DNA from: a virus
Taxonomy: Duplodnaviria > Heunggongvirae > Uroviricota > Caudoviricetes
Reading direction: 5' to 3' (one strand)
IMG/VR virus record: IMGVR_UViG_3300043399_000676
DNA: 64,000 bases
The position numbers and the translations under genes are program-made. Positions 14,763-55,475 of the stretch are shown in pieces; within the stretch, counting starts at the first letter, position 1, and each line of letters starts with the position of its first letter. Under the pieces are notes generated by a model. It was not told where the DNA came from. It ran no database searches and saw only the letters and a program-made list of their open reading frames with translations.

Positions 14763-15305
14763 ATGGCTGATCATATTATGATAGACTTAGAAACACTGGA
14801 TACTGCACCCTCATGCGTAATACTTAGCATTGGTGCGGTAAGATTCGACCCCAAAGGAACTGGCGTAGCAGAGAAGTTCTCGATGAAACCGAATGTCGAT
14901 GAACAACTTGCACTAGGTAGAACAGTTAGTGAAGATACGCTTGCTTGGTGGGCCAATCAAACTAAAGAGGCACAAGACGAAGCACTAGGAGATGAAGGTA
15001 GAGTTCCTCTAAAAGAAGTAATGGAGGCACTCTACCGTTTTTGCTGGAATAAGAAAGCAGTATGGAGTAATGGTGCAGCCTTTGACATTGTTGCTGTCGA
15101 GACTTGCCTACGTCAACTCGATATGAAAATTCCTTGGCCCTTTTGGTCTGTAAGAGACACTAGAACCCTCTATGACATTACAGGAGTTTCTCTAAGAGAC
15201 GGAGGGGCAGTGACATCACACAAAGCAGTAGAAGATGCCGAACGACAAGCTATCGTTGTTCAAAACGGGTACAAAAAATTGATTGATGCAGGATTGATTA
15301 TCTGA
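14763..15305 (+). CDS. DEDD-family 3'-5' exonuclease
   Basis: ExoI IDLET, ExoII WSNGAAFD, ExoIII HKAVEDA. Confidence 0.88.
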   Translation: MADHIMIDLETLDTAPSCVILSIGAVRFDPKGTGVAEKFSMKPNVDEQLALGRTVSEDTLAWWANQTKEAQDEALGDEGRVPLKEVMEALYRFCWNKKAVWSNGAAFDIVAVETCLRQLDMKIPWPFWSVRDTRTLYDITGVSLRDGGAVTSHKAVEDAERQAIVVQNGYKKLIDAGLII

Positions 15306-15898
15306 TGAATAAACATAGATGCGGGGACGTAGACATTGATTTTGGGAACAGAGACAGTATATTGAAACTTATCAGACATACTCCTGCTGCAATGAGGAAG
15401 CTGAACCCAATACGAAAACACGCGACTGGCATCTATGTTACTGAAATTCCATATGACGCTATTAACAATATGGCTAATATAGATTACAGTGAAGCCGAAG
15501 ATCGCGGGTATTTTAAGCTTGATTTTTTGAACGTGCATGTCTACAGTCAAGTAAAAAATGAAGAACATCTAGTTGAGCTAATGCGAGAACCAGATTGGTC
15601 TAGGCTAAAAGATCAAGAGTTTGTCAATCAAGTTATTCATATCAATAATCATTTTTCTTCCCTGAGAAAGATGCCTGAACCTATAAATAGCATAAACAAG
15701 TTAGCAATGTTCTTAGCTTTAATCAGACCAGGTAAGAAGCACTTAATTGGTAAACCTTGGAAAGAAGTAGAAAAGGATATTTGGGATAGAAAAGTTACTG
15801 GGTATACGTTTAGAAGAAGTCACGCATTAGCGTATGCTCAACTTGTAGTTGTACACATGAACCTAATAACAGAAAATGAATTATTCACTAGTACCTGA
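15305..15898 (+). CDS. dnaE: Miniature DNA polymerase III alpha (DnaE)-like catalytic fragment, C-part
   Basis: DVDIDF, RKHATG, YFKLDFL, LALIRPG and YTFRRSHALAY match DnaE palm/finger motifs in order. Confidence 0.82.
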   Translation: MNKHRCGDVDIDFGNRDSILKLIRHTPAAMRKLNPIRKHATGIYVTEIPYDAINNMANIDYSEAEDRGYFKLDFLNVHVYSQVKNEEHLVELMREPDWSRLKDQEFVNQVIHINNHFSSLRKMPEPINSINKLAMFLALIRPGKKHLIGKPWKEVEKDIWDRKVTGYTFRRSHALAYAQLVVVHMNLITENELFTST

Positions 15899-16376
15899 AT
15901 CAGATCCAGTACTTAACTTACTTGCTTCAAGGTGGGATTGGCAAGAAGACGGAGACCCTAGCTCTTTGATAGAAAGTATGTCCACAATCATGAAAGATAG
16001 CGGTGGAGTTGGAATTGCTGCCCCGCAGATTGGCGTAAGTAAACGGATTCTACTAATATGTCATAGTCACGGTAATATACAAGAATATATTAATCCAATA
16101 CTTACTCATGCAGAAGGAGAAGTATTAGACACAGAGGGATGTCTAAGTTTTCCTGGGTTATGGTTAAAAGTAAAAAGATATCAACGAATCGAAGTTCACT
16201 ATGAAACAAAAGAGAAAATTTCGTTGACTAGGTCACTAGAAGAGTTTGAAGCTAGGGTATTTCAGCATGAACTTGACCACTTAGATGGTACTACATTTAC
16301 GAAAAGAGTTGGGTCATTAACGTTAGCACTAGCAAGGAAAAAACAAAAGAAGGCTAAATCCTACGGACTAAAGTGA
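15876..16376 (+). CDS. def: Peptide deformylase
   Basis: GVGIAAPQIG, EGCLS and HELDH are the three PDF signature motifs. Confidence 0.95.
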   Translation: MNYSLVPESDPVLNLLASRWDWQEDGDPSSLIESMSTIMKDSGGVGIAAPQIGVSKRILLICHSHGNIQEYINPILTHAEGEVLDTEGCLSFPGLWLKVKRYQRIEVHYETKEKISLTRSLEEFEARVFQHELDHLDGTTFTKRVGSLTLALARKKQKKAKSYGLK

Positions 16377-16731
16377 TAGATTTTCGTTTGTTTTTTCTGC
16401 CACTCAAATCTAGCATACTACATACAGGTCCATGTAATATAGTTAAACTCTTATTATTGAACGTTTTCAAATAGGGCTTGAAAACAGCCCATTCTGTTTT
16501 TAGGAAAAGGTTTATGGAGATTTTTCTATTACTTTCTCCCCACCATATATCACCTAATTCCAGAAATTTTTCTTTTAGCTCGGGGTAGATGATTGCACCA
16601 TAATCATACATTGACGTTATCACATCGTCACGATTTTGAATGATACCTACATACTCTTGACCGGCGTACGAACAAACTGAAATAAACGGGTGTGTATCTG
16701 TTAACTTCTTGAAAAACTCGTTGTGATCCAT
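16354..16731 (-). CDS. Hypothetical late protein
   Basis: ORF with a minus-strand TAAATA box at 16754-16759. Confidence 0.7.
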   Translation of the reverse strand: MDHNEFFKKLTDTHPFISVCSYAGQEYVGIIQNRDDVITSMYDYGAIIYPELKEKFLELGDIWWGESNRKISINLFLKTEWAVFKPYLKTFNNKSLTILHGPVCSMLDLSGRKNKRKSITLVRRI

Positions 16732-16806
16732 TTATCTCTTTAAAATTATGTTTTATTTATACAAGGTTTCTAATTTGGGAAATAAATATACTTAAAGGAG
16801 ATTGTC

Positions 16807-17538
16807 TTGTATTCCACTGCTATGTTTTTCTACGTTCCTCGTCAACAGGTAGTCTTGAATTACGGAAACTCTCCTAGGAGATACAACACTGTGTACGCAA
16901 AAAACCTCAAACTACACCGCGGTGTAGACAACAGAATTCAGTTCCAACTGATAAGTCAAGAACAAAAACCAATCGATATCACTGGGAAGGAGATTACGTT
17001 TAGGTTGATTGCCGCAGACCGTAAATCTATCCTACTACAAAAAGCATTAGTATCCGTGTTGCCTATTACAGGAATAGTTGAATTGCAAGTTCATGCAAAT
17101 GAGATACAACACATCAAGCCTCAACTATGTTCTTACTCATTAGAAATACCAGTAAACGAGTTTGATCTTCCTGTATTTGTAGACGCTGACTCCGGTGCAA
17201 GAGGTGTAATTGAGGTTGTGGATAGTGTACTTCCAAAATTCACTAGTTCATTCCAAGTTACCATACCTGATCACGGAGCCTCTCCTTACTACAGTAGTGT
17301 TCTAATTAACGCAGGAAACAAGACACTAACTGTGCAGTCATATATGACTGACTTCACTGGAAACGTTAGAATACAAGGTTCTACCATACCTGATACAGAT
17401 TGGTATGACATTGGACCGATCCATACTTATGACAATTCTTCATCCTGTGATTCGTACAACATCGAAGGATTTCACCCGTATTTAAGAGTTCAAATTAATT
17501 CTGAATCTGGATCAATAGACAAAATCTTGGTAAGATAA
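16807..17538 (+). CDS. Putative virion protein with Ig-like/BppU-like beta folds
   Basis: TAAATA at 16783-16788, AAGGAG RBS, TTG start; QKPIDITG.EITF pattern. Confidence 0.5.
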   Translation: MYSTAMFFYVPRQQVVLNYGNSPRRYNTVYAKNLKLHRGVDNRIQFQLISQEQKPIDITGKEITFRLIAADRKSILLQKALVSVLPITGIVELQVHANEIQHIKPQLCSYSLEIPVNEFDLPVFVDADSGARGVIEVVDSVLPKFTSSFQVTIPDHGASPYYSSVLINAGNKTLTVQSYMTDFTGNVRIQGSTIPDTDWYDIGPIHTYDNSSSCDSYNIEGFHPYLRVQINSESGSIDKILVR

Positions 17539-17541
17539 AGT

Positions 17542-17570
17542 TTGTTTCTTTCACTCTAATCTGCTATACT
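17542..17570 (+). promoter_or_regulatory. Sigma70-type promoter for primase, probably leaderless
   Basis: TTGTTT-N17-TATACT with extended TG; the ATG lies 6 nt after the -10. Confidence 0.55.
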
Positions 17571-17576
17571 GATCGA

Positions 17577-18530
17577 ATGTTTGACATTCTATCCATTGTT
17601 CCTGGGAACAAAAAACAATCAGCAAGTGGCTGGTACACTTGCAATGGAATCTGTTGCTCACATCGAGGTCATAGACCAGATACTCGTCATAGATGTGGCA
17701 TTAGACTAGAGAGTAATAATTGGGTAATTCATTGCTTCAACTGCAACTTTAGTTGTTCCTTTATTCTAGGAAAAAGCATTTCTGCTAGAACCAGGCAGTT
17801 CTTGACTTGGTGCGGTGTTGATAATGAACAAATACAACGTTGGAACATTGAATCTCTACAGAAGAAAGACTTACTAGACTTCACTACAAGAAAAACAGTA
17901 AATCTAAAATTCAAAACCAAGGTTATTCCAGGAGAGGAACTCAACTCATCTAACAAAGATCACAAACCCTTCGCAGAGTATTTGATTAAAAGAAAAGTTC
18001 CGCTAAACGCATTGCCGTTTCATGTATCACCCAACGATACAGGAAGGAACGCAAATAGGATAATCATTCCTTATATCTTTAAGGGTAAAGTAGTAGGTCA
18101 TACTAGTAGATACTTAGACAACAAAACTCCTCGCTACATCAACGAGCAGCAACCAGGCTATGTTTTTAATATTGATGCACAACGCCCCGATTGGCAGGTA
18201 TGTATTGTAACTGAGGGCATCTTTGACGCTCTTAGTATCGATGGTGTTGCTTTGTTGCATAATGATATCAGTGAAGATCAATCCATTTTGTTGGCTTCTT
18301 TAAATAAGAAAATTATCTTTGTGCCTGATCGGGATCCATCGGGGTTAAAGCTGACTGATCGGGCATTGGAACTGGGCTATAGCGTAAGTATACCAAATTG
18401 GGATAAATCAGTAAAGGATGTAAACGATGCAGTAGTTAAATATGGAAAACTTCCTACACTACTAAGTATCTTACAGTTTGCAACGAACAGCAAAATCAAA
18501 ATTGAAATGAGGAAAAAGAAAATTGAGTAA
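17577..18530 (+). CDS. DNA primase (gp61-like)
   Basis: N-terminal Cys/His zinc-binding region (C..C...H...C..CFNC) and TOPRIM motifs VTEGIFDA and PDRD. Confidence 0.9.
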   Translation: MFDILSIVPGNKKQSASGWYTCNGICCSHRGHRPDTRHRCGIRLESNNWVIHCFNCNFSCSFILGKSISARTRQFLTWCGVDNEQIQRWNIESLQKKDLLDFTTRKTVNLKFKTKVIPGEELNSSNKDHKPFAEYLIKRKVPLNALPFHVSPNDTGRNANRIIIPYIFKGKVVGHTSRYLDNKTPRYINEQQPGYVFNIDAQRPDWQVCIVTEGIFDALSIDGVALLHNDISEDQSILLASLNKKIIFVPDRDPSGLKLTDRALELGYSVSIPNWDKSVKDVNDAVVKYGKLPTLLSILQFATNSKIKIEMRKKKIE

Positions 18531-19956
18531 GGATTACGGTATCGATGTGCAGAAGGTGTTTCTAAGGGTAATGATAACCAATGCGGAACTTTATGTAAGA
18601 GTCTCTAACATATTCAATCCGCAAAACTTTGATAAGAATTTACGGCCAGTTGCAGAATTTTATCGTGAACATACAGAAAAGTACAAAGTTTTACCTGATC
18701 CAATTCAAATTAAAGCAATCACTGGTATTGACATCGATCCGATCGATGAGTTGACTGACGGTCACTATTCTTGGTTTTTAGAAGAATTTGAGTCGTTCAC
18801 AAAAAGGCAAGAACTTGAGCGAGCGATTCTAAAAAGTGCTGACCTCTTAGAAAAGGGTGAATTTGATCCAGTTGAAAAGTTGATCAAAGATGCAGTTCAA
18901 ATAAGTCTTCAGAAGGATATGGGAACTGATTATTTTGCCGATCCAAAATCAAGACTAACCTCGTTAAAATCAAGCAATGGACAAATCAGTACAGGTTGGG
19001 TTAGCATGGATCAAAAACTGTATGGTGGATTCAATCGAGGCGAACTTCAAATTTTCGCAGGCGGTTCAGGTTCAGGTAAATCGTTGTTTATGCAAAACTT
19101 AGCTGTCAACTGGTCACAGCGAGGGTTGAACGGAGCATACATTACTCTAGAGCTAGCAGAAGGGTTATGTGCCATGCGAATTGACTCAATGATGACTGCC
19201 ACTAATAGTAGAGAAATTTTCAAAGACATTGACAACGTTGAAATGAAGGTTAAGATGATGGCTAAGAAAGCAGGTAAACTTAGGATCAAGTACATGCCTG
19301 CTCAATCGACAGTAAACCATATCCGTGCGTATTGCAAAGAACTAGAGGTGCAAACAGGAACGAAGCTAGATTTTCTGTGTGTAGATTATCTTGATCTTTT
19401 GATGCCAGTATCAGCGAAGGTTAGTCCTAGTGACTTGTTTGTAAAGGATAAATATGTGTCTGAAGAACTTCGCAATCTTTCGAAAGAACTTAATGTACTG
19501 TTTGTTACTGCCTCGCAATTGAATCGATCAGCGGTTGAGGAAGTTGAGTTTGATCACTCTCATATTTCAGGTGGTATTTCAAAGATCAATACAGCAGACA
19601 ACGTGTTTGGTATTTTTACTAGTAGGCATATGCGAGAAAAAGGTCAATATCAACTTCAGCTAATGAAAACCCGATCAAGCTCGGGTGTGGGACAAAAAAT
19701 TGAGCTAGAGTTCAATGTAGAAACTCTTAGAATTACTGACCCTGAATCAGATGAAAATGCACCTACCGTAAGCTATAAACCTCTTAGCCAAGGAGGTAGT
19801 ACCAACAACATTATGAGTAAGATCAAAACCAAATCGGAAGTAATTGATCAAGACACGGGTGAAATTACTGTAGATAGCCCAGTAAAGAAAATAGTGGCGG
19901 ATGTTCGAGGGTCTAAACTAACATCACTTTTAAACAGTATCAAGAACGATAAATAA
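18523..19956 (+). CDS. Replicative DnaB-like helicase (gp41-like)
   Basis: Walker A GGSGSGKS, CVDYLDL, TASQLNRS and KTRSS motifs; TTG start. Confidence 0.92.
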   Translation: MSKDYGIDVQKVFLRVMITNAELYVRVSNIFNPQNFDKNLRPVAEFYREHTEKYKVLPDPIQIKAITGIDIDPIDELTDGHYSWFLEEFESFTKRQELERAILKSADLLEKGEFDPVEKLIKDAVQISLQKDMGTDYFADPKSRLTSLKSSNGQISTGWVSMDQKLYGGFNRGELQIFAGGSGSGKSLFMQNLAVNWSQRGLNGAYITLELAEGLCAMRIDSMMTATNSREIFKDIDNVEMKVKMMAKKAGKLRIKYMPAQSTVNHIRAYCKELEVQTGTKLDFLCVDYLDLLMPVSAKVSPSDLFVKDKYVSEELRNLSKELNVLFVTASQLNRSAVEEVEFDHSHISGGISKINTADNVFGIFTSRHMREKGQYQLQLMKTRSSSGVGQKIELEFNVETLRITDPESDENAPTVSYKPLSQGGSTNNIMSKIKTKSEVIDQDTGEITVDSPVKKIVADVRGSKLTSLLNSIKNDK

Positions 19957-19963
19957 GTTTACT

Positions 19964-20209
19964 ATGCAAAGAAAAACTAGGAGTTTGTTAGAGGAACTTG
20001 AGGAGCTTGGAAAAAAGCATGATACTAGGCATGTAATTGAGAACCGAGCTTCTAACATCATTGCTAGCGCAATAAATTTACTTGAAATGATCGAAAAGCA
20101 TTATGGAGTTGATAAGGCTCAGTTGCTTGAGAGAAAGTTACTGAGCGCCATAAAAGCGAAAGATCAGGCAAGATTCTCTAAGTCACTCAAGAAAAATAGC
20201 GACCAGTAG
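19964..20209 (+). CDS. Hypothetical late protein
   Basis: TAAATA at 19950-19955; helical ORF. Confidence 0.7.
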   Translation: MQRKTRSLLEELEELGKKHDTRHVIENRASNIIASAINLLEMIEKHYGVDKAQLLERKLLSAIKAKDQARFSKSLKKNSDQ

Positions 20210-20278
20210 ATAGTTTTTTTATAATCGGCATAAATACAATCAGAGCATTTAGCTCATATTTTTTAAAGGAAAGATATC

Positions 20279-20692
20279 ATGGCATTTTTTACTCGTACAC
20301 ACGGTGGTTCACAGCCAGTATTCGCAATTGACCAATTGAATGGTACACAAACTGGTACTATTTCTGCCGACGCAACAGTTCAAATCGCAGGTCCAAAGTT
20401 AGATTTCTTCAAGATTCTAATCAAGGATGTCGGCGCATCAGCAATCGATCTTCGTGATCAAATGGACACCGGTGGTGTTGTCGAAGTTGTTCTTCGCACA
20501 TTGACCCAGCTTGCAACTCTTCACTTCTATCAAGTAGAAGGTGATGCAACTGGTCAAATCAGCGTTGCAGTTTATTCAACTGGCGCCTGGGCTGCTGCTG
20601 ACCTCGAAGACGCAATTCAAGCACTAGGCACTGTTAACTCCAAAGACGTTAGCGGTAGTTTAGTTACAAACGGCGGATTCAAACTAGCTTAA
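20279..20692 (+). CDS. Probably abundant virion structural protein
   Basis: Own late box (20231-20236), strong RBS, own terminator, Ala/Gly/Thr/Val-rich. Confidence 0.55.
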   Translation: MAFFTRTHGGSQPVFAIDQLNGTQTGTISADATVQIAGPKLDFFKILIKDVGASAIDLRDQMDTGGVVEVVLRTLTQLATLHFYQVEGDATGQISVAVYSTGAWAAADLEDAIQALGTVNSKDVSGSLVTNGGFKLA

Positions 20693-20707
20693 TAGTTAGT
20701 TACTCAC

Positions 20708-20737
20708 AAAAACCCGAGAATTTCTCGGGTTTTTTTA
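20708..20737 (+). terminator. Intrinsic terminator
   Basis: AAAAACCCGAGA-att-TCTCGGGTTTTTTT. Confidence 0.88.
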
Positions 20738-20754
20738 CCTTCATAAATATCTCT

Positions 20755-21213
20755 ATGTTAAAAATACGATGTTACACACTGTTCGATATAGAAAGAACCG
20801 GAGTTAACAGCCGTAAAGTCCCTATGGGAACAGCTCCTGAAAAGGTAGTTGAATGGGAAATGAAACGCAACAAGCAATGCAATTTCGATACAGTTTTACA
20901 AGTTATCTCTCTTAGAAGCCAACCAGAAAATATTTCCGACCCAGTAAAATTTTCAGTAGAATTTAGCAAACAAGATTACTTTGGGTTTTTATATGAGGGA
21001 GAGGAAAATCAGATAGGATGGACGTTTGATTTTACTATTGCACACAAAGATGTATTTGCAAATGAAACGGGAGAATTGGGCGAGTTATTTATAGATTGTG
21101 ATAATGTGCCCATGATCAAGACTGGAAACGAATGGAGTAAGCTTGACTCGTTGTTATGTACTAGTCCTGACCTTAGGAACATATATTTTGAGGTAATACC
21201 TAATGAAGAATGA
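20755..21213 (+). CDS. Hypothetical late protein
   Basis: TAAATA at 20744-20749, 5 nt before the ATG. Confidence 0.72.
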   Translation: MLKIRCYTLFDIERTGVNSRKVPMGTAPEKVVEWEMKRNKQCNFDTVLQVISLRSQPENISDPVKFSVEFSKQDYFGFLYEGEENQIGWTFDFTIAHKDVFANETGELGELFIDCDNVPMIKTGNEWSKLDSLLCTSPDLRNIYFEVIPNEE

Positions 21214-21685
21214 CGATTGGACCAAGCTTGAAAAACTTCTTGATCCAAAGACAATAAGAAGGATCAAAGATATAATCATCTTAAAAGATGAAGAGACTGG
21301 TAACTATGAAATATATGGTGACTATACTATTCAAAAAAGAAATGACATTGTATGCGTCACAAAGAGCACCAGTGATACGACTTATTTGTTTGGGTCTATA
21401 AAACACGCAATAACATGGATAATCTTAGACAAGAGAAACAAGATACTAGAAGCAAACAGAATTCTCGACCTAGATACTAAACTAGCAGGCGTTGAAACCG
21501 ATATTTTTATACATAGAAAACTAGAGAAAAAATCTAAAGACCCTGATGCCAAATTCTTGTACTTGACAAAATTACAAGAAGACAAGCTAAAGAAAAAAAG
21601 ACTTCAACTTGAAATGGAATCGCAGATCGATTCTGTTTACAATTGGCAAATACGAAAGTTTGAAGAACAAGCCAAGAGCAAGTAA
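21203..21685 (+). CDS. Hypothetical protein (coiled-coil C-terminus)
   Basis: ORF overlapping the previous gene. Confidence 0.7.
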   Translation: MKNDDWTKLEKLLDPKTIRRIKDIIILKDEETGNYEIYGDYTIQKRNDIVCVTKSTSDTTYLFGSIKHAITWIILDKRNKILEANRILDLDTKLAGVETDIFIHRKLEKKSKDPDAKFLYLTKLQEDKLKKKRLQLEMESQIDSVYNWQIRKFEEQAKSK

Positions 21686-21731
21686 ATTTTTATTTCTTGC
21701 ATAAATACACTATCAACATTTTGGAACTACC

Positions 21732-22457: not shown

Positions 22458-22458
22458 T

Positions 22459-22794
22459 ATGCGCCTTTATGAATTTGCTAGTGACGACCCTTACCGTGTT
22501 GCATTGACCGCGGTGGTTAGTCAATATAAAGCTAGGTTAAAGGATTCTAACTCAAAACAGAATCCTAGAACTGATGCATTCATAAACTTTTTGGCAGATA
22601 ATGGATTCCCTGGACTTAACTTAGATGAACTTATCTCAATGCAAAAGCAAGAGCCATTGAAGAATCTCATTAAAAACATAAGTGGGCGTGAAGTAACATT
22701 TTTTGATGCAGACGAAGAAGAAATTACTAGTGATATAGATCAGGATAAGAACGAAAAGATCGTACAGAATCTTGCCAAAAAAGCATTAAAATAA
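22459..22794 (+). CDS. Hypothetical late protein with MRLYEF leader
   Basis: ORF in late operon. Confidence 0.7.
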   Translation: MRLYEFASDDPYRVALTAVVSQYKARLKDSNSKQNPRTDAFINFLADNGFPGLNLDELISMQKQEPLKNLIKNISGREVTFFDADEEEITSDIDQDKNEKIVQNLAKKALK

Positions 22795-22799
22795 CCTAA

Positions 22800-22835
22800 G
22801 TGATTGTACTAGTAGTAAAAAACTAGTACAATCAC
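22800..22835. promoter_or_regulatory. Perfect 14-bp inverted repeat coinciding with a TTGTAC-N17-TACAAT promoter readable on both strands
   Basis: GTGATTGTACTAGT-agtaaaaa-ACTAGTACAATCAC. Confidence 0.75.
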
Positions 22836-22841
22836 CTTATC

Positions 22842-23525: not shown

Positions 23526-23532
23526 CCAAATT

Positions 23533-23587: not shown

Positions 23588-23594
23588 AATAACT

Positions 23595-26500
23595 ATGGCT
23601 ATTGTCCAAATTTCAAGAATTCAACACAGAACAGGTAGAAACGAAGACCTACCTCAATTAGCAGAAGGTGAACTTGGGTTTGCCACTGATCAACGAAGAT
23701 TATACATAGGAAATGATGCGATTCAATACCCGGCATCATCCGGAACTACTACTCAAACTGAAATTCTAACAGAATTTAGTGAGATAAGTTTTAGTCAAAT
23801 TAGGGGAAGTAGCGGGGCAGAACTAAACATAATAGAACCGCTCACTGAAGGTCAAGTACTAGTTGTAGAAGCAAATACAACTGCAGGGTTGACTCCCACA
23901 TATAGTATAGTAAATAGAGGCGGAGTATCTGGGTATTCAGGCACTGGAAACATTCACTTAGGTGATATCAACAACGTAAAGATCCTAGGTGGATTTAATA
24001 GTTGGGTTTTAACAACAAAAGGAAATGGTGACCTAGTTTGGGCTCCATCTGGTCTTACAATTTCAGACATATCAAACATCACGTTTGACAGCGGTGCTGC
24101 AAATACCACCCTTATCACAACAGACGATGATCATAACATTGTATTAGGACGTCTAGTTACAATAACGGACGTTGAAGGATTTTTAAATCTTATAACCGGC
24201 ACAGGCACTATAACTTCAGTAAGTTCAAGTAATCTTGTTACTTCAACATCCAATGCAAGCTTTGGTTCAATTAGTATTGGAGATTTCTTAACTACTAGTG
24301 CAAACGTAATACTTGGAACAGTTGATGCTGTTTATTCCGCTAATAGTACAATTCAACTAACCGCAAACGCATCTACATCTTATACCGGTGGATTTAGAAC
24401 AGGAAAAAATGGAATCAATGGTTATACTCCGTTGTATGCAAAACCAACTGGGATAGGAAACCAATTTTGGGTATATACTGCGTTTGATGCGAACACTAGT
24501 ACTGCAAGTGGTTCATTTGATTCCACTGGATTTAGTCCATATGTTTCAGGAACAGGTAGAGTAACGTCATCTACAGCCGGTGGAGGCGGAGGTGGGATTA
24601 CTCTAACAGGCACTACTAATACACAGGTACTGTTCAATAATGCAGGTACACTGGGCGGTGAGGCTAATTTAACATATGACAAGACATCAAAGCAACTATC
24701 TGTTACTTCACTAAAACCAAACGTAATTGTTGACGGAAGCTCTTCGTCTGGTACTTCAGGATTCGTTCTGTCTGCAACTGGTGCAGGTATTGCTTGGTTA
24801 CCGTCGTCTTCATTACAAGGAACATCAGGCTTTTCAGGGTTAAATGGCACCATCGGTGTTAACGGAGCTTCAGGCTTAAGTGGATATAGTGGTGTTTCTG
24901 GCTCAGGCATTTCTGGTTTTAGTGGCATCAGTGGATACTCGGGTATAAGTGGCATCAGTGGATACTCGGGTATATCAGGTGGATCAGGATGGAGCGGATT
25001 CAGTGGAAGATCAGGATATTCCGGTATATCAGGTTCAAGCGGAACATCAGGATGGAGTGGATTCAGCGGAACATCAGGATGGAGTGGATTCAGTGGTGCA
25101 CTTGGTACATCAGGCGTTTCAGGTCGAAGTGGTTACAGTGGTTACAGTGGCATCAGTGGATATTCTGGCTTTTCGGGGTACTCAGGCGCATCTGGTATTT
25201 CTGGATGGAGCGGGTACAGCGGAATACCAGGAACAAGTGGGACAAGCGGCGCCTCTGGCTTTAGTGGATTCTCGGGTTATAGTGGAATTAGCGGTAAAGA
25301 TGGAACGTCGATCACAGTTAAAGGCAGCGTAAGCACATTTACAAGTTTACCTGGTTATCCTAATTCCTACACTGGTGACCCAGGAGACTTGTACATAACT
25401 GCTGATACAGGGAACGGCTGGGTATGGAGTGGAACAGCATGGACTGACGCAGGAAAGATTCAAGGACCATCTGGATATTCAGGTGTGTCTGGATCTGGTG
25501 TGTCTGGATGGAGTGGATTCAGCGGTACATCAGGATGGAGTGGATTCAGTGGCATTTCAGGTCGTAGTGGATTCAGCGGTGAATCAGGTTGGTCTGGCGC
25601 ATCAGGTAGAAGTGGGTTCAGTGGTTACTCGGGCGCATCTGGAACATCAGGATGGAGCGGAGCAGTTGGTGCAACCGGAACAACTGGAACATCAGGATTC
25701 TCAGGTATATCTGGATGGAGCGGAGAATCTGGATTCAGTGGTGTCAGTGGATCATCGGGATTTAGTGGCATTTCTGGATCTGGTGTATCTGGTTTTAGTG
25801 GAAGATCAGGATATTCTGGTATAAGTGGATTCAGCGGAATATCTGGAAGTAATGGTCAAACTGGAACATCAGGTTATTCCGGTGCAGTAGGTAGCACTGG
25901 AGCACAAGGACCACAAGGTGTCCAAGGAGCTGTTGGTCCAGTCGGAGCGCAAGGTGCTACAGGTGCTCAAGGTGCGCAAGGTGCGATTGGTCCACAAGGT
26001 GTCCAAGGAGCAACTGGTCCTCAGGGCGTCGCTGGTGCTCAAGGTGCTCAAGGAAGACAAGGTGTCCAAGGAGCAACGGGAGCAGCAGGTGCTCAAGGAC
26101 CACAAGGTGTCCAAGGTGTCCAAGGGATTCAAGGTTCACCTGGTGGTGCAGGACCACAAGGACCACAAGGCGTTCAAGGGGCAGCGGGATCTGGTTATTC
26201 AAGTGTTACCTCTAGTACTTCTGCAACTCCTGCAAGTTCAGGAACTATTACATTAACCACTAACCAGCAAGGTGCATTTGTTACTGGAACTAGAGTTCGT
26301 GCTATAAACACTACCAATAACTTCTTCGAAGGTACTGTAACTATAACAGGCGGCACTAGCTTTGCAATTGCAGCAGATTATAGTGTGGGATCAACAACTG
26401 CGAGTTCTTGGACAATAACAGTTGCCGGTGTACGAGGAGCACAAGGAGCACAAGGGTTGGCAGGAGCACAAGGGTTGGCAGGAGCACAAGGTCCAATCGG

Positions 26501-27872
26501 TGCACAAGGACCACAAGGGGTGCAAGGCTCACTTGGTGCTCAAGGACCACAAGGATTCATTGGTGCACAAGGTGTGCAAGGAGCAGCAGGAGCAGCAGGA
26601 GCACAAGGTGTACAAGGAGGACCAGGTCCACAAGGACCACAGGGAAGACAGGGTGTACAGGGAGCAACTGGTCCACAAGGACCACAGGGTGTACAGGGGG
26701 CGACTGGTACAATTCCAGGTAATGTTGTTACAACTGATACCAATCAAGATATCACTGGACAAAAAACATTTAAGGCAAATACTTATGTAACCAACGCAGT
26801 TGTAACTCTTAGTAATGCTGCAATTACCTCAAATAGTAACGTTACTCTTACTGGTTCAGGTGTCATAAGCATTGCCTCTACTACAGCAGCAACGACTAGT
26901 TCTACAGGAGCACTAGTAGTAGGCAATTCTGTAGGTATAGGTGGTTCTAATGTGTATGCCGCTAACAACATTGTTGGTGCTAATGTTACGGGTGTTATTA
27001 ACGTTAATGGGGGCAACGGTAGCTTTACTTCGTTAAATGCGAGCGGGAAAGTAACATTTACTGTAAATTCAGGAAATGTCACGCTTACAAGCGATGACCT
27101 TGAACTTAGCCCTTCAGGTAACGTTAGGATTAGTCCAACTGGGTTATATGGACAATTATTTATAAATCCTACAGTCACTGGAGATATTGATAATGTTAAC
27201 ATAGGTAGAACTACTGCAAGATTAGGTAGGTTTACTACTATTACGGGAACAAACACCGCAAGCTCAACTTCTACTACAACAGGTGCACTTGTTATCGCCG
27301 GCGGTGCGGGCATAGGAGGCAACGTTTATGCAAGCAACCTATTCTCAACCGGAGGAGAATTGACATTAACCTCATCCGGAGGAAAAATAAAATATGACGG
27401 AACTAATCAATTATTAGTGCTATCTGCTGGATCATCAGCACAAGCAAATATTACGTTAGGATTAGTAGGTCCTGTAATTGGTGGTCTATTGATTGCAAAT
27501 GGCAATATAAGTTCAGGTGGAAACATTAGTGCTGCATATGATGTTATAGCATACTCAGGCTCTGACAGAAGACTAAAAGCAAATATTAAACCAATTTCTA
27601 ATGCACTTGATAAGATATCAAAGATAACTGGAGTTGAATTTGATTGGCTAAATGTAAACGAATCTGATATCGACGGATACTTCCGTAGAAAGCATGACAT
27701 CGGTGTTATTGCACAAGAAATCGAAGAGGTCTTACCAGAAATTGTAGGTACACGACAAGATGGTATGAAGGCGGTAAAATATGATAGGATCGTAGCTCTA
27801 CTGATTCAAGCAATAAAAGACTTGAATGAGGAAGTTAAGGTTCTTCGTAATTTGATCAAGGGGAATAAATAA
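23595..27872 (+). CDS. Long tail fibre/spike protein with collagen-like repeats and a C-terminal intramolecular chaperone (peptidase S74-like)
   Basis: N-terminal [18 protein letters not shown] domain, long G-X-S and G-X-Q triplet runs, and C-terminal SDRRLKANI...[15 protein letters not shown] followed by a coiled coil. Confidence 0.85.
24817..26715 (+). repeat. Gly-X-Y triplet repeats: (G-X-S)n at ~24817-25890 and (G-X-Q)n at ~25897-26190 and ~26428-26715
   Basis: Seen in the translation and in many near-identical 9/18/27-bp units. Confidence 0.93.
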
Positions 27873-49500: not shown

Positions 49501-49707
49501 ACTGAGACAGAATGTCAATGCGATTCGGAGCAAGTTGAAGAAGCGTTCGATAATGAAGTCGATTCTCAAACAATGGATTCAGGTTATGTTGATCAATTGG
49601 CTGGTGGTATAAATGGGCCAGCAAGACAGCATCCACATGGATATCAAAACGGAGATAATCCTCTCGCTATGGAAGCAATGTTAAAACTTGCAGGATTGAG
49701 AAAGTAA
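46567..49707 (+). CDS. 1046-aa modular, low-complexity probable internal head protein
   Basis: Alternating basic and acidic modules separated by xxE|[AGDS] motifs; C-terminal MLKLAGL. Confidence 0.6.
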   Translation: MNMKDMLEKLSQLNEADSETTGKFDAKKTSTGTRYTRKSSTFSDEEGDDKDTAKTTKKKAGRPPKGASKDGKEPYANAATLQRYIVGSNPDSKELKSLPSKVHSTKEPKKSKDAPEKKKAGAKATKATKTSKTAKAKKLADWVTHIDKQLRSHRLLSEDPSPYTLKQVPTGQLVDKNQKVIATGDTQTLARINQDQANNKVTFTPANQTNEDMGSDQEMGQLAMQIASLARQARTEDSYLTAEIGQAEYEARLTGRELSPELQQKFSRQHAELMRTEEELDAAIAEFKRRYPGVNWGKASSDASENYRTAKRNKGLLTKARRLIGMHESADSAFSVIDKALRQTGEFEAIGVHGLDMILDYAESKNLGDYERVPGSGGEFTIEFPDSPDYYIYKPAGHKIVTLVYTGKKESRMYEGKKAVSKKQQEFMGMVHAAQKGKKPASKKVGDVAKSMKKGDVEDFASTKHKGLPEKKNTKKSEQINELSWGTAQSARKKSDQRLRDYITAHHGDQTKKTRISGNHYGDGYSTPDQVIDNPGYENWKAGVDQDPFVISQRKRSKRFSDYSDKQWPKEEARRKALRLYDNLKSSGYSDVQIRKALGKDIALIPEKFPKKSVTPELNESFDRLKAAKYRGISHAMEGHGYSRPDDLEEARAYHEGYKEGLDNCNDDVLMGEGNAFTGALARTRKGDSFSVGGNRFTDRSSYDADIDEDAYDAYSDPDFPAYKRPGRQPLSLDNLDVNRGPGPGLMTHSPERPTVHRIHGELGPRGNRATLDTFREPKPGIMSDLRNLIPEDDDPFGFGKPGDAQFESWDRELNNLLNEGLTVSFNSGQENTPDSVSINATEEDAGEMLALLKNSGLGVFGGSEEGASDSEEGDHTGDAGMLLSVNADDDGLGQGSEASPSPDVVDDADDMLSLIKRMAGGDTEETEIDSSEESDEEAEEHDEESDDSEEHDEESDDSEDDEEKVDEGNATCNECGLTETECQCDSEQVEEAFDNEVDSQTMDSGYVDQLAGGINGPARQHPHGYQNGDNPLAMEAMLKLAGLRK
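49382..49457 (+). repeat. 30-bp tandem repeat x2.5 encoding EEHDEESDDS
   Basis: CCGAAGAGCATGATGAAGAATCAGATGACT at 49382 and 49412. Confidence 0.93.
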
Positions 49708-49724
49708 CAACATTTTCTTAACTT

Positions 49725-49757
49725 AAAATAGCTCGGGTAACACCGAGCTATTTTTTT
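49725..49757 (+). terminator. Intrinsic terminator
   Basis: AAAATAGCTCGG-gtaaca-CCGAGCTATTTTTTT. Confidence 0.9.
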
Positions 49758-49797
49758 GGCTAACTATCGAATAAATATATGATAAGGGCTAACAGCA

Positions 49798-50493
49798 ATG
49801 GCAAAGAAAATTATAAACTACGGTGACGCACCAAATGCAGCAGGGGCAGATTCTTTATATACTGCATTCCAAAAAACTAAAGACAATTTTGATGAGTTAT
49901 ATTCTGCAATATCAGTTAATACAGCAATTACTAATATTGTTGCAGGCGAAGGTTTAACACAAAACGGAACTACTGGAAACGTAGTTATAACAGCGAATAT
50001 CCCTCAGGTAGAGATTCAATCTACTTCCTTGATAATGGGTTTAAACAACAATCTTGCAGGAAATAACAACGTCACTATTACAAATAGTGACGCTCCTTTA
50101 GTTATTGATATTGATCCTGATATTGTTGCTGATTCTATTAATGTAGATACCGCAAATATAGGTGCAAATTTAAGTGTGTCAGGATGGATTACAATGTCCG
50201 CCGCTCAAACAGTTACTGCAACTGGAACAAATCAAGCGACTGCTTTTGACATTGGATCATCGTTGAATGTAGTCACATCTGCAAATGCAGGCACAGGATT
50301 AAAGTTACCAAGTACAGTTCCTGCAGGAACTTCAGTTTATATTGTGAATCAAAGCGCGAATACAATAAGTGTCTATCCCCCACTGACAGGCACTATTAAC
50401 ACTGGTATTGCGAATGCGGCTGTTACCCTTGCATCAAATAATACTATGGTAGTTGTTAAAGCAACTACTGCAAATAAATGGTATACTTTCTAA
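49798..50493 (+). CDS. Baseplate/fibre protein with a T4 gp9/gp10-like N-terminus
   Basis: INYGDAPN..GADSL..AF.K...NF.ELY motif; late box at 49772-49777. Confidence 0.68.
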   Translation: MAKKIINYGDAPNAAGADSLYTAFQKTKDNFDELYSAISVNTAITNIVAGEGLTQNGTTGNVVITANIPQVEIQSTSLIMGLNNNLAGNNNVTITNSDAPLVIDIDPDIVADSINVDTANIGANLSVSGWITMSAAQTVTATGTNQATAFDIGSSLNVVTSANAGTGLKLPSTVPAGTSVYIVNQSANTISVYPPLTGTINTGIANAAVTLASNNTMVVVKATTANKWYTF

Positions 50494-50503
50494 GGAGTAG
50501 ATT

Positions 50504-51127
50504 ATGGAAATAACTTTGAAGTTACTCAAGGCTCTATGCCCGAGTACAAATAACGAAAAGTTGCAAAGGTATTGTGAGCCACTGAATGAAGTAGTTCGTT
50601 ACTATGAGATTGATCAAACTCCTGAAAGATGTGCTGGGTTTTTAGCACAAATCGCACACGAATCAGGCGGATTCAACTTGGTTGTAGAAAATCTTAATTA
50701 CAATGCTGCGGGTTTGATGAGAGTATTTAGAAAGTATTTTCCATCTGAAGCATTAGCTAAGACCTACGAACGAAAACCAGAAAAAATAGCAAACAAAGTT
50801 TATGCAAACAGAATGGGCAATGGCTCAGAAGAATCAGGTGATGGTTGGAGATATAGGGGAAGAGGTCTCATCCAACTAACTGGAAAAAATAACTATGCTG
50901 CATTCGCCAATGGGCTAGGTATAAGCCTACAAGAATGCGTAGCTTATATGGAAACTCCAGAAGGTGCATGTGCAAGTGCAGGATGGTTTTGGGATACTAA
51001 CAAGTTGAATAATTACTGTGACAAGGGAGACTTTGTTGGACTAACTAAACGAATTAACGGCGGTACAAATGGGTTAGCAGATAGGCAACACCATTATTCG
51101 CTTGCGTTAAGTTTATTGAAGGATTAA
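50504..51127 (+). CDS. Glycoside hydrolase family 19 endolysin
   Basis: FLAQIAHESG, YRGRGLIQLTGKNNY, SAGWFW and INGGTNGL motifs. Confidence 0.93.
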   Translation: MEITLKLLKALCPSTNNEKLQRYCEPLNEVVRYYEIDQTPERCAGFLAQIAHESGGFNLVVENLNYNAAGLMRVFRKYFPSEALAKTYERKPEKIANKVYANRMGNGSEESGDGWRYRGRGLIQLTGKNNYAAFANGLGISLQECVAYMETPEGACASAGWFWDTNKLNNYCDKGDFVGLTKRINGGTNGLADRQHHYSLALSLLKD

Positions 51128-51128
51128 T

Positions 51129-53684
51129 ATGAATCAACCAAAATGGATTACACCTGCAGGAAGCTTAGGAACATATCCTTCTGGTAGTGAGTTTTTGTTT
51201 CAAATGAACGCAGTGCCTGTATTCCCCGCAACATTTGTAACATACAAACTGTTGAGCGGTCAACTCCCTAGTGGTATTAAGATTGACAAGAATGGAAAAA
51301 TATTCGGTTCTACTACATTGACTGGGTTGACCACACGTTATGATTTTACGATTAGAGTGACTGATAACTTAGGTACTATAAGAGATAGAAGTTTCTTTAT
51401 AGAAATAGCAGGCGTTGAGATTCCAAAATTTTTAACAGAAGAAGGCGAAATATTCACTGTATATGATAGCATTTGGGTAGAAAAACAAATAGAGTTTACT
51501 AACCCAACTGACAGCAATGTTAAGATTTATTTGCTTAATGGAAAACTTCCACCAGGCTTAGAGATCAATTCTAATGGGTTAATAAGAGGATATCCGTTAG
51601 CCCCAGTAGATCCTATTAGTGGAGCTCCGACCTCCGTTACATATGATTTTATTCTAGTTTTGTTGAGTGATTTAGGAAGAGCTACAGCAAGATACTCAAT
51701 TACTGTAAGAAACTTTACATTATTCTTTTCTAACGCAAATAGAAAACCAGCAATATTAAACGCTAAACCACTTAGTTTTACTATTCCTAGAGACGATCCA
51801 TACTTCAGCTACTATGCGATTGGCAGCGACAACTTCTTAGGTGAAATAACGAGCGGGGATGAATTTCAATTTAAGGTTATTGGATACGACTTTGACAATC
51901 AACCTATAACATATCAGTTCATAAACTTACCGCCTCAGTTAAACGGAGACCCATTTACAGGTTGGATTACAGGTACACCTGCTACGAATGAAAAGGGCAT
52001 AAACAGGTTTTCTTTCTCAGTAAAAGCACTCAAGCCAATGAAACCGGTAGTAACATTTAATTACTTAAATGATACCTCTGTGCTAGTAGCACCCAATGTT
52101 CAGCCATTGCCTAACAACAAAGCAAGATTCAATGCAGAAGATTTGTCACAGGCTACTCAACTGTATTTGAAAAACATTGACAATGAAATAATTTCTATAG
52201 ATCCGCCCATATACGGAAGAAGTATAACAGGGATAATGAATCTAATCTACGGAAAAATTAACTATATAAAAGTTTCTCTAAATTCAGACGTAAACCATTA
52301 TGTTTTGTTTGAAGTAATGGGAAGTATTCAACCAAACGCATCTTGGTTTACAGTTCCAATACGATACGTTTATGGTTCAACAACTTTTTCTTCAGATGCA
52401 AATATCAATGTTGCGTTAGGTGAAAACATAGTCAGTAGTACAGAATCCTTCTACTTCAATATAACAAACGATATTCAGCCGTCTGTTACTTGGATAACAG
52501 AATCAGATTTGGGTGTTATTTCAAATGGTACACTAAGCACGTTATATGTACAAGCAGCATCTTCAGAACCTTTAGTGTACAGAATGGCGGCAAATCCAAA
52601 TGGTACAAACAGTGCTTTGCCGCCTAACTTATTTTTGCTTCCATCAGGAGAGATATACGGCAAAGTTGCATTTCAACCAAATAATTCTCCTATGAGTTTA
52701 GGAGATACAACGACATATACGTTTACGATAGAAGCCTATTCAGAAGAATATCCATTGCTTGCCTCTAAGAAAACATTTAATTTGACTGTGAGCCAAGATA
52801 TCGAAAGCCCGGTCGATACTATCTATTTTAAAGCATCCCCTAATTTAGAAGATAGAGCGATTCTTTCTTCTCTATTAGACACTGAGGATATTATACCTAC
52901 TTCTTACTTGTATAGACCAACTGATATCTACTTTGGAAAATCAAGAGAAGTAATTTATCCATTTGCATACGGGATGACAGCATCTTCAGTTGAAGACTAT
53001 ATTCGATCAGTAGACAGGAATCATTACAAAAAAAGTGTGACATTAGGAGAGCTAAGAACTGCACAAGCAAGGGATGAGAACAACAATGTTATCTATGAGG
53101 TTGTTTATAGTGTGATAATTGATGATCAAGTGAACAACGCAGGAAAAAGTATAAGCCAAAGTATTTTGTGGCCTACATTAATTTATAGCAGTAGTCCTTG
53201 GTTTACTAGTACCACCAACATATACACTAGCTATGAAAACACAGTTGATCAAAAGTATTATACTTCTTTGACATCAAACACGACCAGAAGATTGTATCCC
53301 AATAGTTTTGATAATATGTTGGAGCAAGTAAAAACTTATATCCCGCAAAACTCAAGCAGTAAGCTACTTCCGTTATGGATGACTAGTCAGCAAGAAAACG
53401 GAAGTACACTTGGATTTGTCAAAGCATGGGTAATTTGTTATACGAAGCCTGGATTTGCCGCTCAGATAAAGAACAACATTGAAACGCAGTGGCAGTATAA
53501 ATTAAATCAAATAAACTTTGAAATAGACAGGTATACGATTGACAAGAGCAGCACATACAACTATGATACTGACCTTTATTTCCCAACGTGGACCGAAATC
53601 CCAAGTGCATCTCCTGTCCCTGATCCATTGAACAGTACTGATCAATATGTGCTATTCCCAAGACAAACAATTTTGCCAAACTGA
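51129..53684 (+). CDS. Large baseplate-associated protein with putative Ig-like repeats
   Basis: Repeated L.SG.LP.G..I...G.I.G.P motifs. Confidence 0.62.
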   Translation: MNQPKWITPAGSLGTYPSGSEFLFQMNAVPVFPATFVTYKLLSGQLPSGIKIDKNGKIFGSTTLTGLTTRYDFTIRVTDNLGTIRDRSFFIEIAGVEIPKFLTEEGEIFTVYDSIWVEKQIEFTNPTDSNVKIYLLNGKLPPGLEINSNGLIRGYPLAPVDPISGAPTSVTYDFILVLLSDLGRATARYSITVRNFTLFFSNANRKPAILNAKPLSFTIPRDDPYFSYYAIGSDNFLGEITSGDEFQFKVIGYDFDNQPITYQFINLPPQLNGDPFTGWITGTPATNEKGINRFSFSVKALKPMKPVVTFNYLNDTSVLVAPNVQPLPNNKARFNAEDLSQATQLYLKNIDNEIISIDPPIYGRSITGIMNLIYGKINYIKVSLNSDVNHYVLFEVMGSIQPNASWFTVPIRYVYGSTTFSSDANINVALGENIVSSTESFYFNITNDIQPSVTWITESDLGVISNGTLSTLYVQAASSEPLVYRMAANPNGTNSALPPNLFLLPSGEIYGKVAFQPNNSPMSLGDTTTYTFTIEAYSEEYPLLASKKTFNLTVSQDIESPVDTIYFKASPNLEDRAILSSLLDTEDIIPTSYLYRPTDIYFGKSREVIYPFAYGMTASSVEDYIRSVDRNHYKKSVTLGELRTAQARDENNNVIYEVVYSVIIDDQVNNAGKSISQSILWPTLIYSSSPWFTSTTNIYTSYENTVDQKYYTSLTSNTTRRLYPNSFDNMLEQVKTYIPQNSSSKLLPLWMTSQQENGSTLGFVKAWVICYTKPGFAAQIKNNIETQWQYKLNQINFEIDRYTIDKSSTYNYDTDLYFPTWTEIPSASPVPDPLNSTDQYVLFPRQTILPN

Positions 53685-53716
53685 CACACAATAAATACGC
53701 TATAGGGTTAAAATAA

Positions 53717-54700
53717 ATGAGTTCAATCAATACAAACGGAATCAATCCTAACTATCCTGTACCAGGAGTCAATAACTCCTCTCAGGGTTTTAGAGATAAC
53801 TTCACCTCCATAAAAACTAACTTGGATACTGCATACACAGAGATTACGGATATCCAAACTAAAGCTATAGTCAAATCTCCGCTAGCTGGTATCCCAATTA
53901 ACAATGATATGGGAAACACTTTAATAAGTAATGCTCTAGTAAAAGGTTTTAGAGCTACTACTTATAACTTAGGCAACTCTATCTCAGGCATCACGACAAT
54001 TGATCTTTCAAAAGGTGACGTTCAGTATGGAACAATAGCAGGAAATAGTTCGGTAAACTTACAATTTATAAACTGGGCACCTGCGGGAACACAAAGTAAT
54101 GTTCAAGTATACTTGACAGCAGTTGATGCTAACACGTTCATCAACTTACCAAATAGTATAGGTTCAAGTGTTGATTCTTCTGCAAATTTTATCGAAAACT
54201 ATTATGTTTCTGGTAGTAATAAAGTACTATCCTTTGCGTCAGGTGCAGAAGAGGTAAAGCTTAGATTTAGTACTATTGATTGCGGTAAGACAATTACTAT
54301 TGAACCAATCAACAAACCAAAAGTTGAAAAACATTTTGATATCCCTACTGTCGCTAATGTAGTACTAACTGGCAATATCACTAAGAGTTCAGGTAGTAAT
54401 TTAGTTAGTGGCTCTGGAACTCAATTTACTACACAGTTAGCACCAGGCACTACATTAATAGACTCGGCTAATGTGTTTGTGGGAATAGTAGATGTAATCG
54501 CAAATAATGTTTCATTGACATTACAAACAAGCACTTCCGCAATAGTATCAGGCGCTGCATATGGAAAACAAGTTCCAATCGGTGACCCTTCTGACAAACC
54601 GGGTCACATTAAAGTAAGTACTGACTATTTGTATGCATGTTTTGATGACTATGATGGATCTTCTCCTATATGGAAACGAATTCCCTTAGATAGGTATTAA
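53717..54700 (+). CDS. Virion structural (baseplate/fibre) protein
   Basis: Late box at 53692-53697; YPVPGVNNSSQGFRDNF N-terminus; beta-rich. Confidence 0.58.
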   Translation: MSSINTNGINPNYPVPGVNNSSQGFRDNFTSIKTNLDTAYTEITDIQTKAIVKSPLAGIPINNDMGNTLISNALVKGFRATTYNLGNSISGITTIDLSKGDVQYGTIAGNSSVNLQFINWAPAGTQSNVQVYLTAVDANTFINLPNSIGSSVDSSANFIENYYVSGSNKVLSFASGAEEVKLRFSTIDCGKTITIEPINKPKVEKHFDIPTVANVVLTGNITKSSGSNLVSGSGTQFTTQLAPGTTLIDSANVFVGIVDVIANNVSLTLQTSTSAIVSGAAYGKQVPIGDPSDKPGHIKVSTDYLYACFDDYDGSSPIWKRIPLDRY

Positions 54701-54701
54701 A

Positions 54702-54938
54702 ATGATGCAGCATCCATTTATCAATGATCTTTCTGACAAAACGCTTGAGGAACTGCAAACTGCGATTGTAAACTTGACCAGTAAACTTATCTTTGCATCA
54801 AGAATGCAAAACGTAGGATTAGCACAACAGATTCAAATGGTATTGGAAAGCTACAAGTCTGAGTATTACCGAAAGACACAGGAAATGTACAAGAAGCAAA
54901 ATATTGATGGGCACATCAATATTACCAAGAACTCTTGA
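54702..54938 (+). CDS. Small helical hypothetical protein
   Basis: ORF in operon. Confidence 0.68.
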   Translation: MMQHPFINDLSDKTLEELQTAIVNLTSKLIFASRMQNVGLAQQIQMVLESYKSEYYRKTQEMYKKQNIDGHINITKNS

Positions 54939-54963
54939 TTCATGTAATCAAGGCCTATATAAT
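54935..54963 (+). promoter_or_regulatory. Sigma70-type promoter with a palindrome over the -35; probably leaderless
   Basis: TTGATT-N17-TATAAT; CTTGATT-catgt-AATCAAG; the ATG lies 5 nt after the -10. Confidence 0.7.
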
Positions 54964-54968
54964 AAGGT

Positions 54969-55475
54969 ATGAATACCGATATTTATGGTCGACAGATACT
55001 AGACGAGAATGATCTTTGTAGGTTATACCTCAAAGATCCAAATGCTAAGTATGGCACCTTTTTACTCAAAGAACCTATTAAATTTGATGAGGATCTTGAG
55101 CTAGAATGGTTACCTAAACAAAATAAGTATGAGCCAATTGATTGCTCTTTGGAGGAGTTTGATAACTCTGCTCAGAGCAAATGGCTAATGCCAAAAGAAT
55201 ATCAGGAATTGGATATCGCGGAATGGGTATTAGATCAGTGTTCTTCTAATGAAGAACTAAACAGGGCAGGCAAAGAACTAATTTTGTATCAAGAAAGAGA
55301 TTTGTTTCCTATGCTTCAATATATGAAGTATTTGGTTGATACCATGCGTAAGAACAAGATAGTTTGGGGCGTGGGCAGGGGAAGTAGCGTTTCTAGTTTT
55401 GTCCTATTTCTTATTGGAGTTCATAAAATAAACTCGTTACAGTATGGACTAGATGTCCATGAATTTCTTAAATAA
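54969..55475 (+). CDS. dnaE: DnaE-like fragment, N-part (region preceding the palm aspartates)
   Basis: R...EL........Y...V........GVGRGSSVSSFVLFLIGVHKIN...L...EFL corresponds to DnaE GxGRGSxxGSLVxYxLGITxxDP...FERFL. Confidence 0.82.
   Translation: MNTDIYGRQILDENDLCRLYLKDPNAKYGTFLLKEPIKFDEDLELEWLPKQNKYEPIDCSLEEFDNSAQSKWLMPKEYQELDIAEWVLDQCSSNEELNRAGKELILYQERDLFPMLQYMKYLVDTMRKNKIVWGVGRGSSVSSFVLFLIGVHKINSLQYGLDVHEFLK

Follow-up and report, generated by a model that had tools for sequence, protein, structure and literature searches.

A split and minimal form of the alpha subunit of DNA polymerase III (Pol III) has been described in group 2.2 jumbo phages, where it is found beside a family B DNA polymerase (Iyer, Anantharaman, Krishnan, Burroughs and Aravind 2021, Viruses 13:63, PMC7824862). 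In that study, the split was recognized from sequence, the mini Pol III was suggested to cooperate with the family B enzyme in the synthesis of one strand or in repair, and it was put forward as a model of ancestral Pol III. Here we analyzed two open reading frames (ORFs), the N-half and the C-half, carried by a stretch of 64,000 nucleotides (the window) from the IMG/VR virus record IMGVR_UViG_3300043399_000676, a member of the Caudoviricetes. We put at about 80% the probability that these two ORFs are the "split minimal DNA polymerase III alpha" subunits typical of group 2.2 (Rak2/PA5oct/Atu_ph07-like) jumbo phages and act as an accessory DNA polymerase.

Database labels and other papers are in line with this description. 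The PHROGs label for both families (phrog_11127 and phrog_11778) is "DNA polymerase". In GenBank, the N-half is called "DNA polymerase III alpha subunit" and some C-halves are labeled, as in phage Phosso ("DnaE-like DNA polymerase III alpha"). PF07733 was a marker of one marine jumbo-phage cluster for Weinheimer and Aylward (2022), and alpha and epsilon subunits were noted in Atu_ph07 by Attai et al. (2018). The omics paper on PA5oct makes no mention of these genes. A preliminary description of the window, made from its letters, had implied that the arrangement was new, which did not hold, as it is published (PMC7824862) and annotated in PHROGs and GenBank. The same description had suspected that similar ORFs might be annotated in related jumbo phages, and they are.

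The pair in the window is one more copy of a published arrangement, from an uncultured freshwater phage. As in the phages of Iyer et al., an NTP-binding N part and a Mg- and template-binding C part are encoded by distant genes, both PHROG families are matched, and the motifs are the same, as is the T4-like replication context with a family B polymerase, the latter seen in related contigs. In contrast, the subclade of the window has a DEDDh exonuclease gene, and sometimes a peptide deformylase gene, by the C-half, and the published description is silent on both. Beyond that description, we report rare natural fused forms, the mapping of the break to residues 393/395 of the E. coli protein, the conservation of a steric-gate histidine, and the restriction of the exonuclease link to one clade.

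Two halves of a minimal family C core

The N-half gene (54969-55475, + strand; PF07733 E 1.3e-8, phrog_11127 E 1.9e-39) encodes a protein of 168 amino acids that ends in ...GVGRGSSVSSFVLFLIGVHKINSLQYGLDVHEFLK. The C-half gene (15305-15898, + strand; phrog_11778 E 1.9e-55) encodes a protein of 197 amino acids that starts with MNKHRCGDVDIDF and contains KHATG, KLDFL, LIRPG, and FRRSHALAYA. Both genes are on one strand, the C-half gene coming 39.7 kb before the N-half gene, and their products total 365 amino acids. Direct reading agreed with the preliminary description on the coordinates of both ORFs, on the motifs quoted for them, and on their summed length of about 365 amino acids. Together, the two ORFs encode a minimal family C (Pol III alpha) catalytic core, divided into an N-terminal and a C-terminal half.

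Profile searches and fold comparison both lead to this identity. The N-half passes the Pfam cut-off for PF07733 and aligns to residues 384-454 of Thermus aquaticus Pol III alpha, the alignment ending at FERFL. Taken as a single sequence, the C-half had no Pfam match and no match by phmmer in the Protein Data Bank (PDB) at E values up to 10. A profile of 83 members of its family matches E. coli Pol III alpha (E 1.4e-5); in this match, KxD is paired with K553/D555, RPG with 639-641, and KSHA with S759/H760. The DiDiD of the C-half aligns with E. coli 399-404 weakly (this stretch scores -3.5 bits); D10, D12, and D73 are aligned to E. coli D401, D403, and D555, respectively. AlphaFold (AF2) models of the C-half and of the N-half reached a predicted local distance difference test score (pLDDT) of 95.7 and 86.3, respectively. 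In fold comparisons, residues 70-168 of the N-half superimposed on E. coli Pol III alpha 277-393 (Z 10-11, root-mean-square deviation 2.4-2.6) and on Mycobacterium tuberculosis DnaE1 305-413 (Z 12.2). Residues 1-195 of the C-half matched PolC 966-1296 (Z 9.7), the Taq enzyme (Z 9.6), and E. coli 395-784 (Z 8.4). Only family C polymerases scored above Z 3.5, the score of the next unrelated entry, and the likeness of the halves to Pol III alpha is not a matter of chance. The comparison of each half with DnaE and PolC, which the preliminary description had suggested, thus returned family C alone above this score.

Residues 70-168 of the N-half correspond to the initial portion of the palm and include the GVGRGSS loop for nucleotide binding. 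The C-half corresponds to the second part of the palm and to shortened fingers, and bears the DxD (D10, D12), KxD (K71, D73), RPG (R141), and SH (H173) motifs. Residues 1-69 of the N-half (54969-55175) make up an extra alpha/beta module ahead of the palm, which is conserved in the family and in the fused forms described below. For this module, neither a Pol III counterpart nor another fold was found; an Atlas search returned its own family alone. In the model of the complex, it is predicted to pack on residues 45-59 and 67-70 of the C-half.

Much of the full-length enzyme is missing. No PF02811 match was found for a PHP domain, and the fold alignments cover E. coli 277-784 only. Compared with full Pol III alpha, the phage pair lacks the PHP domain, the thumb, the region of E. 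coli 642-738, and everything beyond residue 784 (HhH and beta-binding parts), including the clamp-binding motif and the OB/tau end. The segment from RPG to KSH is reduced from ~117 to ~30 amino acids, and about 25 amino acids lie between DxD and HAxG, where there is no thumb. A miniature DnaE core without PHP, clamp-binding, and OB domains had been proposed at the outset, and both fold coverage and Pfam bear this out; the thumb is likewise absent. The phage proteins share with bacterial DnaE and PolC the Pol-beta-like palm, the GS loop, the three catalytic aspartates, and the equivalents of K553, RPG, and S759/H760. They differ in being 365 amino acids long in two chains, whereas the bacterial enzymes have ~1160 in one, and in carrying the additional N-terminal module of 69 residues.

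The break between the halves leaves no space for a protein splicing element. Split intein halves measure ~100 amino acids on the N side and ~35 on the C side. Because the N-half stops straight after EFLK and the C-half has seven residues before its first conserved aspartate, neither end has room for an intein half, and the claim of a split without an intein stands. Read-through or splicing into one polypeptide is ruled out as well, because the C-half gene precedes the N-half gene and both have start and stop codons of their own. On the structures, the break maps between residues 393 and 395 of E. coli Pol III alpha, in the palm, with the GS loop on one side of it and the DxD strand on the other. 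The ranges covered by the two halves (277-393 and 395-784) confirm its earlier placement between the GRGS/FERFL and DxD motifs. As in the intein-split DnaE of cyanobacteria, a family C polymerase comes from two distant genes. However, the phage break is without intein halves and lies in the palm, whereas the cyanobacterial product is a full-length DnaE obtained by trans-splicing, with a break that in Synechocystis falls in the fingers near residue 774.

The window derives from an uncultured freshwater jumbo myovirus. Its source run sampled a freshwater metagenome, a record of the N-half protein exists on a contig of 338,587 bases, and there is no RNA run among the public runs listed for the sequence. 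A megablast of the C-half region against phages gave no match. There is no close cultured relative; the window copy is at most ~50% identical to any copy from a cultured phage. Environmental jumbo phages carry the mini Pol III family, the activity of which is predicted, in great abundance, and its sequence clusters number in the thousands. The N-half family has at least 7985 clusters at 90% identity; the C-half family has 395 representatives at 50% identity and is found at no fewer than 597 loci in IMG/VR. Reading frames are intact and lengths constant across the family.

Residue conservation was followed in 83 diverse C-halves, 30-54% identical to the window copy, and in 29 N-halves. D8, D10, K71, D73, R141, and P142 are present in 83/83 C-halves and D12, H39, and H173 in 82/83, and all 29 N-halves keep GVGRGSS. 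The retention of the three catalytic aspartates, first claimed for the window copy, thus extends across the family (D10 and D73 without exception, D12 in all but one). The counterpart of H173 in the alignment is E. coli H760, a residue that does not vary in Pol III alpha and that structural modeling has put forward as a steric gate against ribonucleotides (PMC8485763). The conservation of the histidine at this position argues for a live enzyme selecting deoxynucleotides. As judged from these alignments, the near-invariant active site favors purifying selection, and the pairing of H173 with H760 favors deoxynucleotides as probable substrates.

Several observations suggest that the halves work together, and the active site is complete in neither half alone. 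All five long IMG/VR contigs with a C-half also had the N-half, 35-45 kb away and on the same strand. Among cultured phages, which are Rak2-like jumbo phages, 90 records contain the N-half and 96 the C-half, and both are spread over the same genera. The distance between the halves is mostly 30-44 kb in these phages (43.7 kb in PA5oct; 34 kb in GAP32, CBB, and BF), with wider spacing in Atu_ph07 (182 kb) and Phosso (224 kb). Synteny is maintained from Pseudomonas to Agrobacterium phages.

We also found three distinct natural proteins in which the halves are fused. They are 375-376 amino acids long, share 78-81% identity with one another, and come from different samples. Their fusion point is the same junction as that of the split (KEFIK-DNKEGIYNIA-DFDID), and they pass PF07733 across it. 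Such single ORFs, of 375-376 amino acids, are located at L002:1066-2193 and L096:519-1649, in contigs from other metagenomes. In a tree of C-halves with a midpoint root only, the fused forms make up one clade (100/100) nested among the split forms, and fusion is therefore probably secondary.

A model of the complex between the N-half and the C-half scored 0.90, compared with 0.01 for the best of three controls; of 80 solved complexes, 58 attained this level, as did 2 of 110 mismatched pairs. The runs agreed in at least 95% of contacts, with a partner pLDDT of at least 89, and the GS loop (N-half 131-142) was placed against the DxD strand (C-half 11-13). In solved structures of Pol III alpha, this interface lies within one chain, so the result may reflect the likeness to those structures; it supports binding and does not show it. 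Co-occurrence in related genomes and modeling of the complex were among the checks suggested in the preliminary description, and together with the natural fusions they speak for the non-covalent heterodimer that it had put forward. We regard the identity of the pair as a split minimal Pol III alpha that assembles into one active site as very probable.

A subclade with an adjoining exonuclease

In the window, the gene for a stand-alone DEDDh 3'-5' exonuclease of the Rv2179c-like family (14763-15305, + strand; PF16473 E 1.4e-38, phrog_255) stands between a zinc-finger gene and the C-half. Its stop overlaps the start of the C-half by one base, in the sequence TGATG as read directly, and not by four bases as in ATGA. 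We surveyed 70 IMG/VR loci with enough upstream sequence. The exonuclease was upstream in 34 of the 37 loci with a C-half at least 62% identical, and abutted the C-half in 17 of these. Below 58% identity, it was upstream in a single locus out of 20, and the zinc-finger gene abuts the C-half there instead. PA5oct has no exonuclease at this site. The best cultured-phage matches of the exonuclease are from small siphoviruses and lambdoid phages, not from jumbo phages, and the family is widespread in small phages. The coupling is real and persistent, but it arose by a later insertion, within one subclade, and does not define the system. The coupling of the C-part to a DEDD exonuclease, as claimed earlier, is thus correct for the overlap seen here but fails as a general feature, given the distant loci and PA5oct.

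The arrangement in the window resembles the bacterial alpha-epsilon pair (DnaE and DnaQ) in that a 3'-5' DEDDh exonuclease gene is translationally coupled to the catalytic half. However, the phage exonuclease is Rv2179c-like (PF16473) and not DnaQ, the linkage occurs in one subclade, and the PHP domain, which epsilon binds in E. coli, is absent. From gene order, it is possible that the exonuclease acts as a separate proofreader or accessory subunit, in this subclade only. When longer proteins were searched for an Rv2179c-like exonuclease fused to a Pol III domain, two matches were obtained, none with PF07733 and one of them a thymidine kinase fusion, which is weak evidence in either direction. 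The phrog_12219 and phrog_2082 profiles (823 positions) contain an unconfirmed hint of an exonuclease-Pol III fusion. It seems rather doubtful that, in the freshwater subclade, the mini Pol III recruited the DEDDh exonuclease, and perhaps the C2H2 protein, to become a self-contained proofreading polymerase of three to four parts and fewer than 800 residues. If it did, the exonuclease-recruiting form would represent the alpha-epsilon core in a minimal, analogous version that needs no PHP, thumb, or clamp.

Proposed function and alternative explanations

The C-half gene is located inside a T4-like replication module (gp32, UvsX, UvsW, primase, and DnaB), flanked by UvsW on one side and by primase/DnaB on the other. 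The N-half gene is near an RFC-like clamp loader, beside tail and chaperone genes. The presence of a family B polymerase in related genomes was another point that the preliminary description had suggested for checking, and an ORF of ~900 amino acids coding for such an enzyme was found 25-30 kb past the N-half in both of the related contigs that extend that far.

From homology, fold, conservation, co-occurrence, and the existence of fused forms, we infer how the halves may assemble, on what substrate they may act, and in what role. The N-half would provide the first part of a Pol-beta-like palm and the triphosphate-binding GS loop. The C-half would supply the strand with two metal-binding aspartates, the KxD strand with the third, and shortened fingers that bear the arginine of RPG and the steric-gate histidine. 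The two halves would join non-covalently, with no intein involved, to form one active site. The likeliest activity would be a template-dependent addition of deoxynucleotides, by a distributive accessory polymerase serving in repair, gap filling, or one-strand work. Because the thumb, clamp-binding, HhH, and OB parts are missing, the pair would work beside the T4-like family B replicase of the phage. In the subclade of the window, the exonuclease encoded directly upstream of the C-half may act with it. We lean toward a DNA polymerase that works distributively on a template, in an accessory role to the family B replicase, because the fingers helix with the steric-gate histidine is retained, the context is one of replication, and the thumb and clamp-binding parts are missing.

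Several points weigh against this reading. Templated synthesis is not assured, because the thumb, the HhH part, and the clamp-binding motif are all missing, as is most of the finger region from RPG to KSH (642-738); in the E. coli enzyme, residues 642-738 hold further nucleotide-contacting residues. The family B polymerase was not seen in the window, which ends 8.5 kb after the N-half. An RNA-related role is conceivable, since the linked exonuclease comes from a family that takes its name from an exoribonuclease. Finally, we found no biochemical, genetic, or expression report in the literature for any member of the split mini Pol III family.

The alternative that survives best is that the core is a nucleotidyltransferase other than a template-copying DNA polymerase, such as a terminal transferase, an enzyme for the tailing or repair of RNA 3' ends with its exoribonuclease-like neighbor, or a primer-making enzyme. 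It is established that the family C palm has a Pol-beta-like nucleotidyltransferase fold common to many non-polymerase enzymes (PMC7824862), and the lack of the thumb and of about half of the fingers, like the name of the exonuclease family linked in this clade, would suit such an activity. However, the pair retains RPG and the fingers helix with a histidine at the position of E. coli H760 (82/83), the C-half gene lies among genes of DNA replication (UvsW, primase, and DnaB), and the exonuclease link is missing from most of the family. We consider a different nucleotidyl transfer, be it terminal, RNA-directed, or priming, unlikely.

Far less probable is that the halves are independent and that each functions on its own or together with components of the host Pol III, for instance by acting as a decoy of the host replisome or by modulating it. 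The 40 kb between the genes and their different neighborhoods (a replication module in one case, tail and chaperone genes in the other) could be read in this way. Against it stand the incomplete active site in each half, the strict co-occurrence, the natural fusions, the model of the complex (0.90 against 0.01 for the best of three controls), and the conservation of all catalytic residues. The last alternative, a decaying and non-functional remnant of a captured dnaE gene that was broken up, would account for the drastic shrinkage from ~1160 to 365 amino acids and for the split, but is effectively refuted, as far as alignments can tell, by conservation: the family is very large, its frames are intact and its lengths constant, its active-site residues are invariant at 30-55% identity, its models are confident, and its synteny holds from Pseudomonas to Agrobacterium phages.

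If active, the split minimal Pol III alpha would have much the smallest polymerase core in family C, with 365 residues over two chains, and would be a natural experiment on the minimal needs of the bacterial replicase fold.

Neighboring genes

Other T4-like genes surround the two halves. The window encodes a large terminase, a gp32-like single-stranded DNA-binding protein, UvsX/RecA, the UvsW helicase, a primase, a DnaB-type helicase, and an RFC-like clamp loader, together with the structural proteins of the tail sheath, tail tube, and tail sheath stabilizer. The order of genes around the C-half is kept in relatives: UvsW is followed by two small genes, by a C2H2 zinc-finger protein of ~230 amino acids (phrog_11058), and by the C-half, after which come a 125-amino-acid gene on the opposite strand (phrog_11637), a protein of 243 amino acids, primase, and DnaB.

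In the window, the C2H2-type zinc-finger protein (13640-14356, + strand; phrog_11058 E 7.6e-58) has 238 amino acids and an N-terminal finger. In PA5oct and in metagenomic relatives without the exonuclease, its gene is directly upstream of the C-half and often overlaps it. Relatives of this protein were found in phages only, none with a known function; judging from its position, it could be a further subunit or a regulator of the polymerase. Downstream, the last 23 bases of the C-half gene are shared with a peptide deformylase gene (15876-16376, + strand; PF01327 E 3.1e-37), and 18 of 80 related loci have a deformylase gene at this site.

A chaperone and stress cluster (55853-63404) adjoins the N-half. 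It comprises genes for a Cpn10/GroES-like protein (55853-56218), the RFC-like clamp loader (56537-57469), PhoH on the minus strand (57764-58459), DnaJ (60346-61131), and ClpB (61128-63404). Directly 5' of the N-half start, at 54950-54968, the sequence TATATAATAAGG resembles a T4-type late promoter or a -10 box followed by a ribosome-binding site. The N-half may thus have its own promoter, separate from the operon of the C-half.

Between the two halves, a tail-fiber-like protein of 1425 amino acids (23595-27872, + strand) carries a long collagen triple-helix repeat in eight stretches, with an Mtd_N-like N-terminus and a C-terminal S74 intramolecular chaperone domain.

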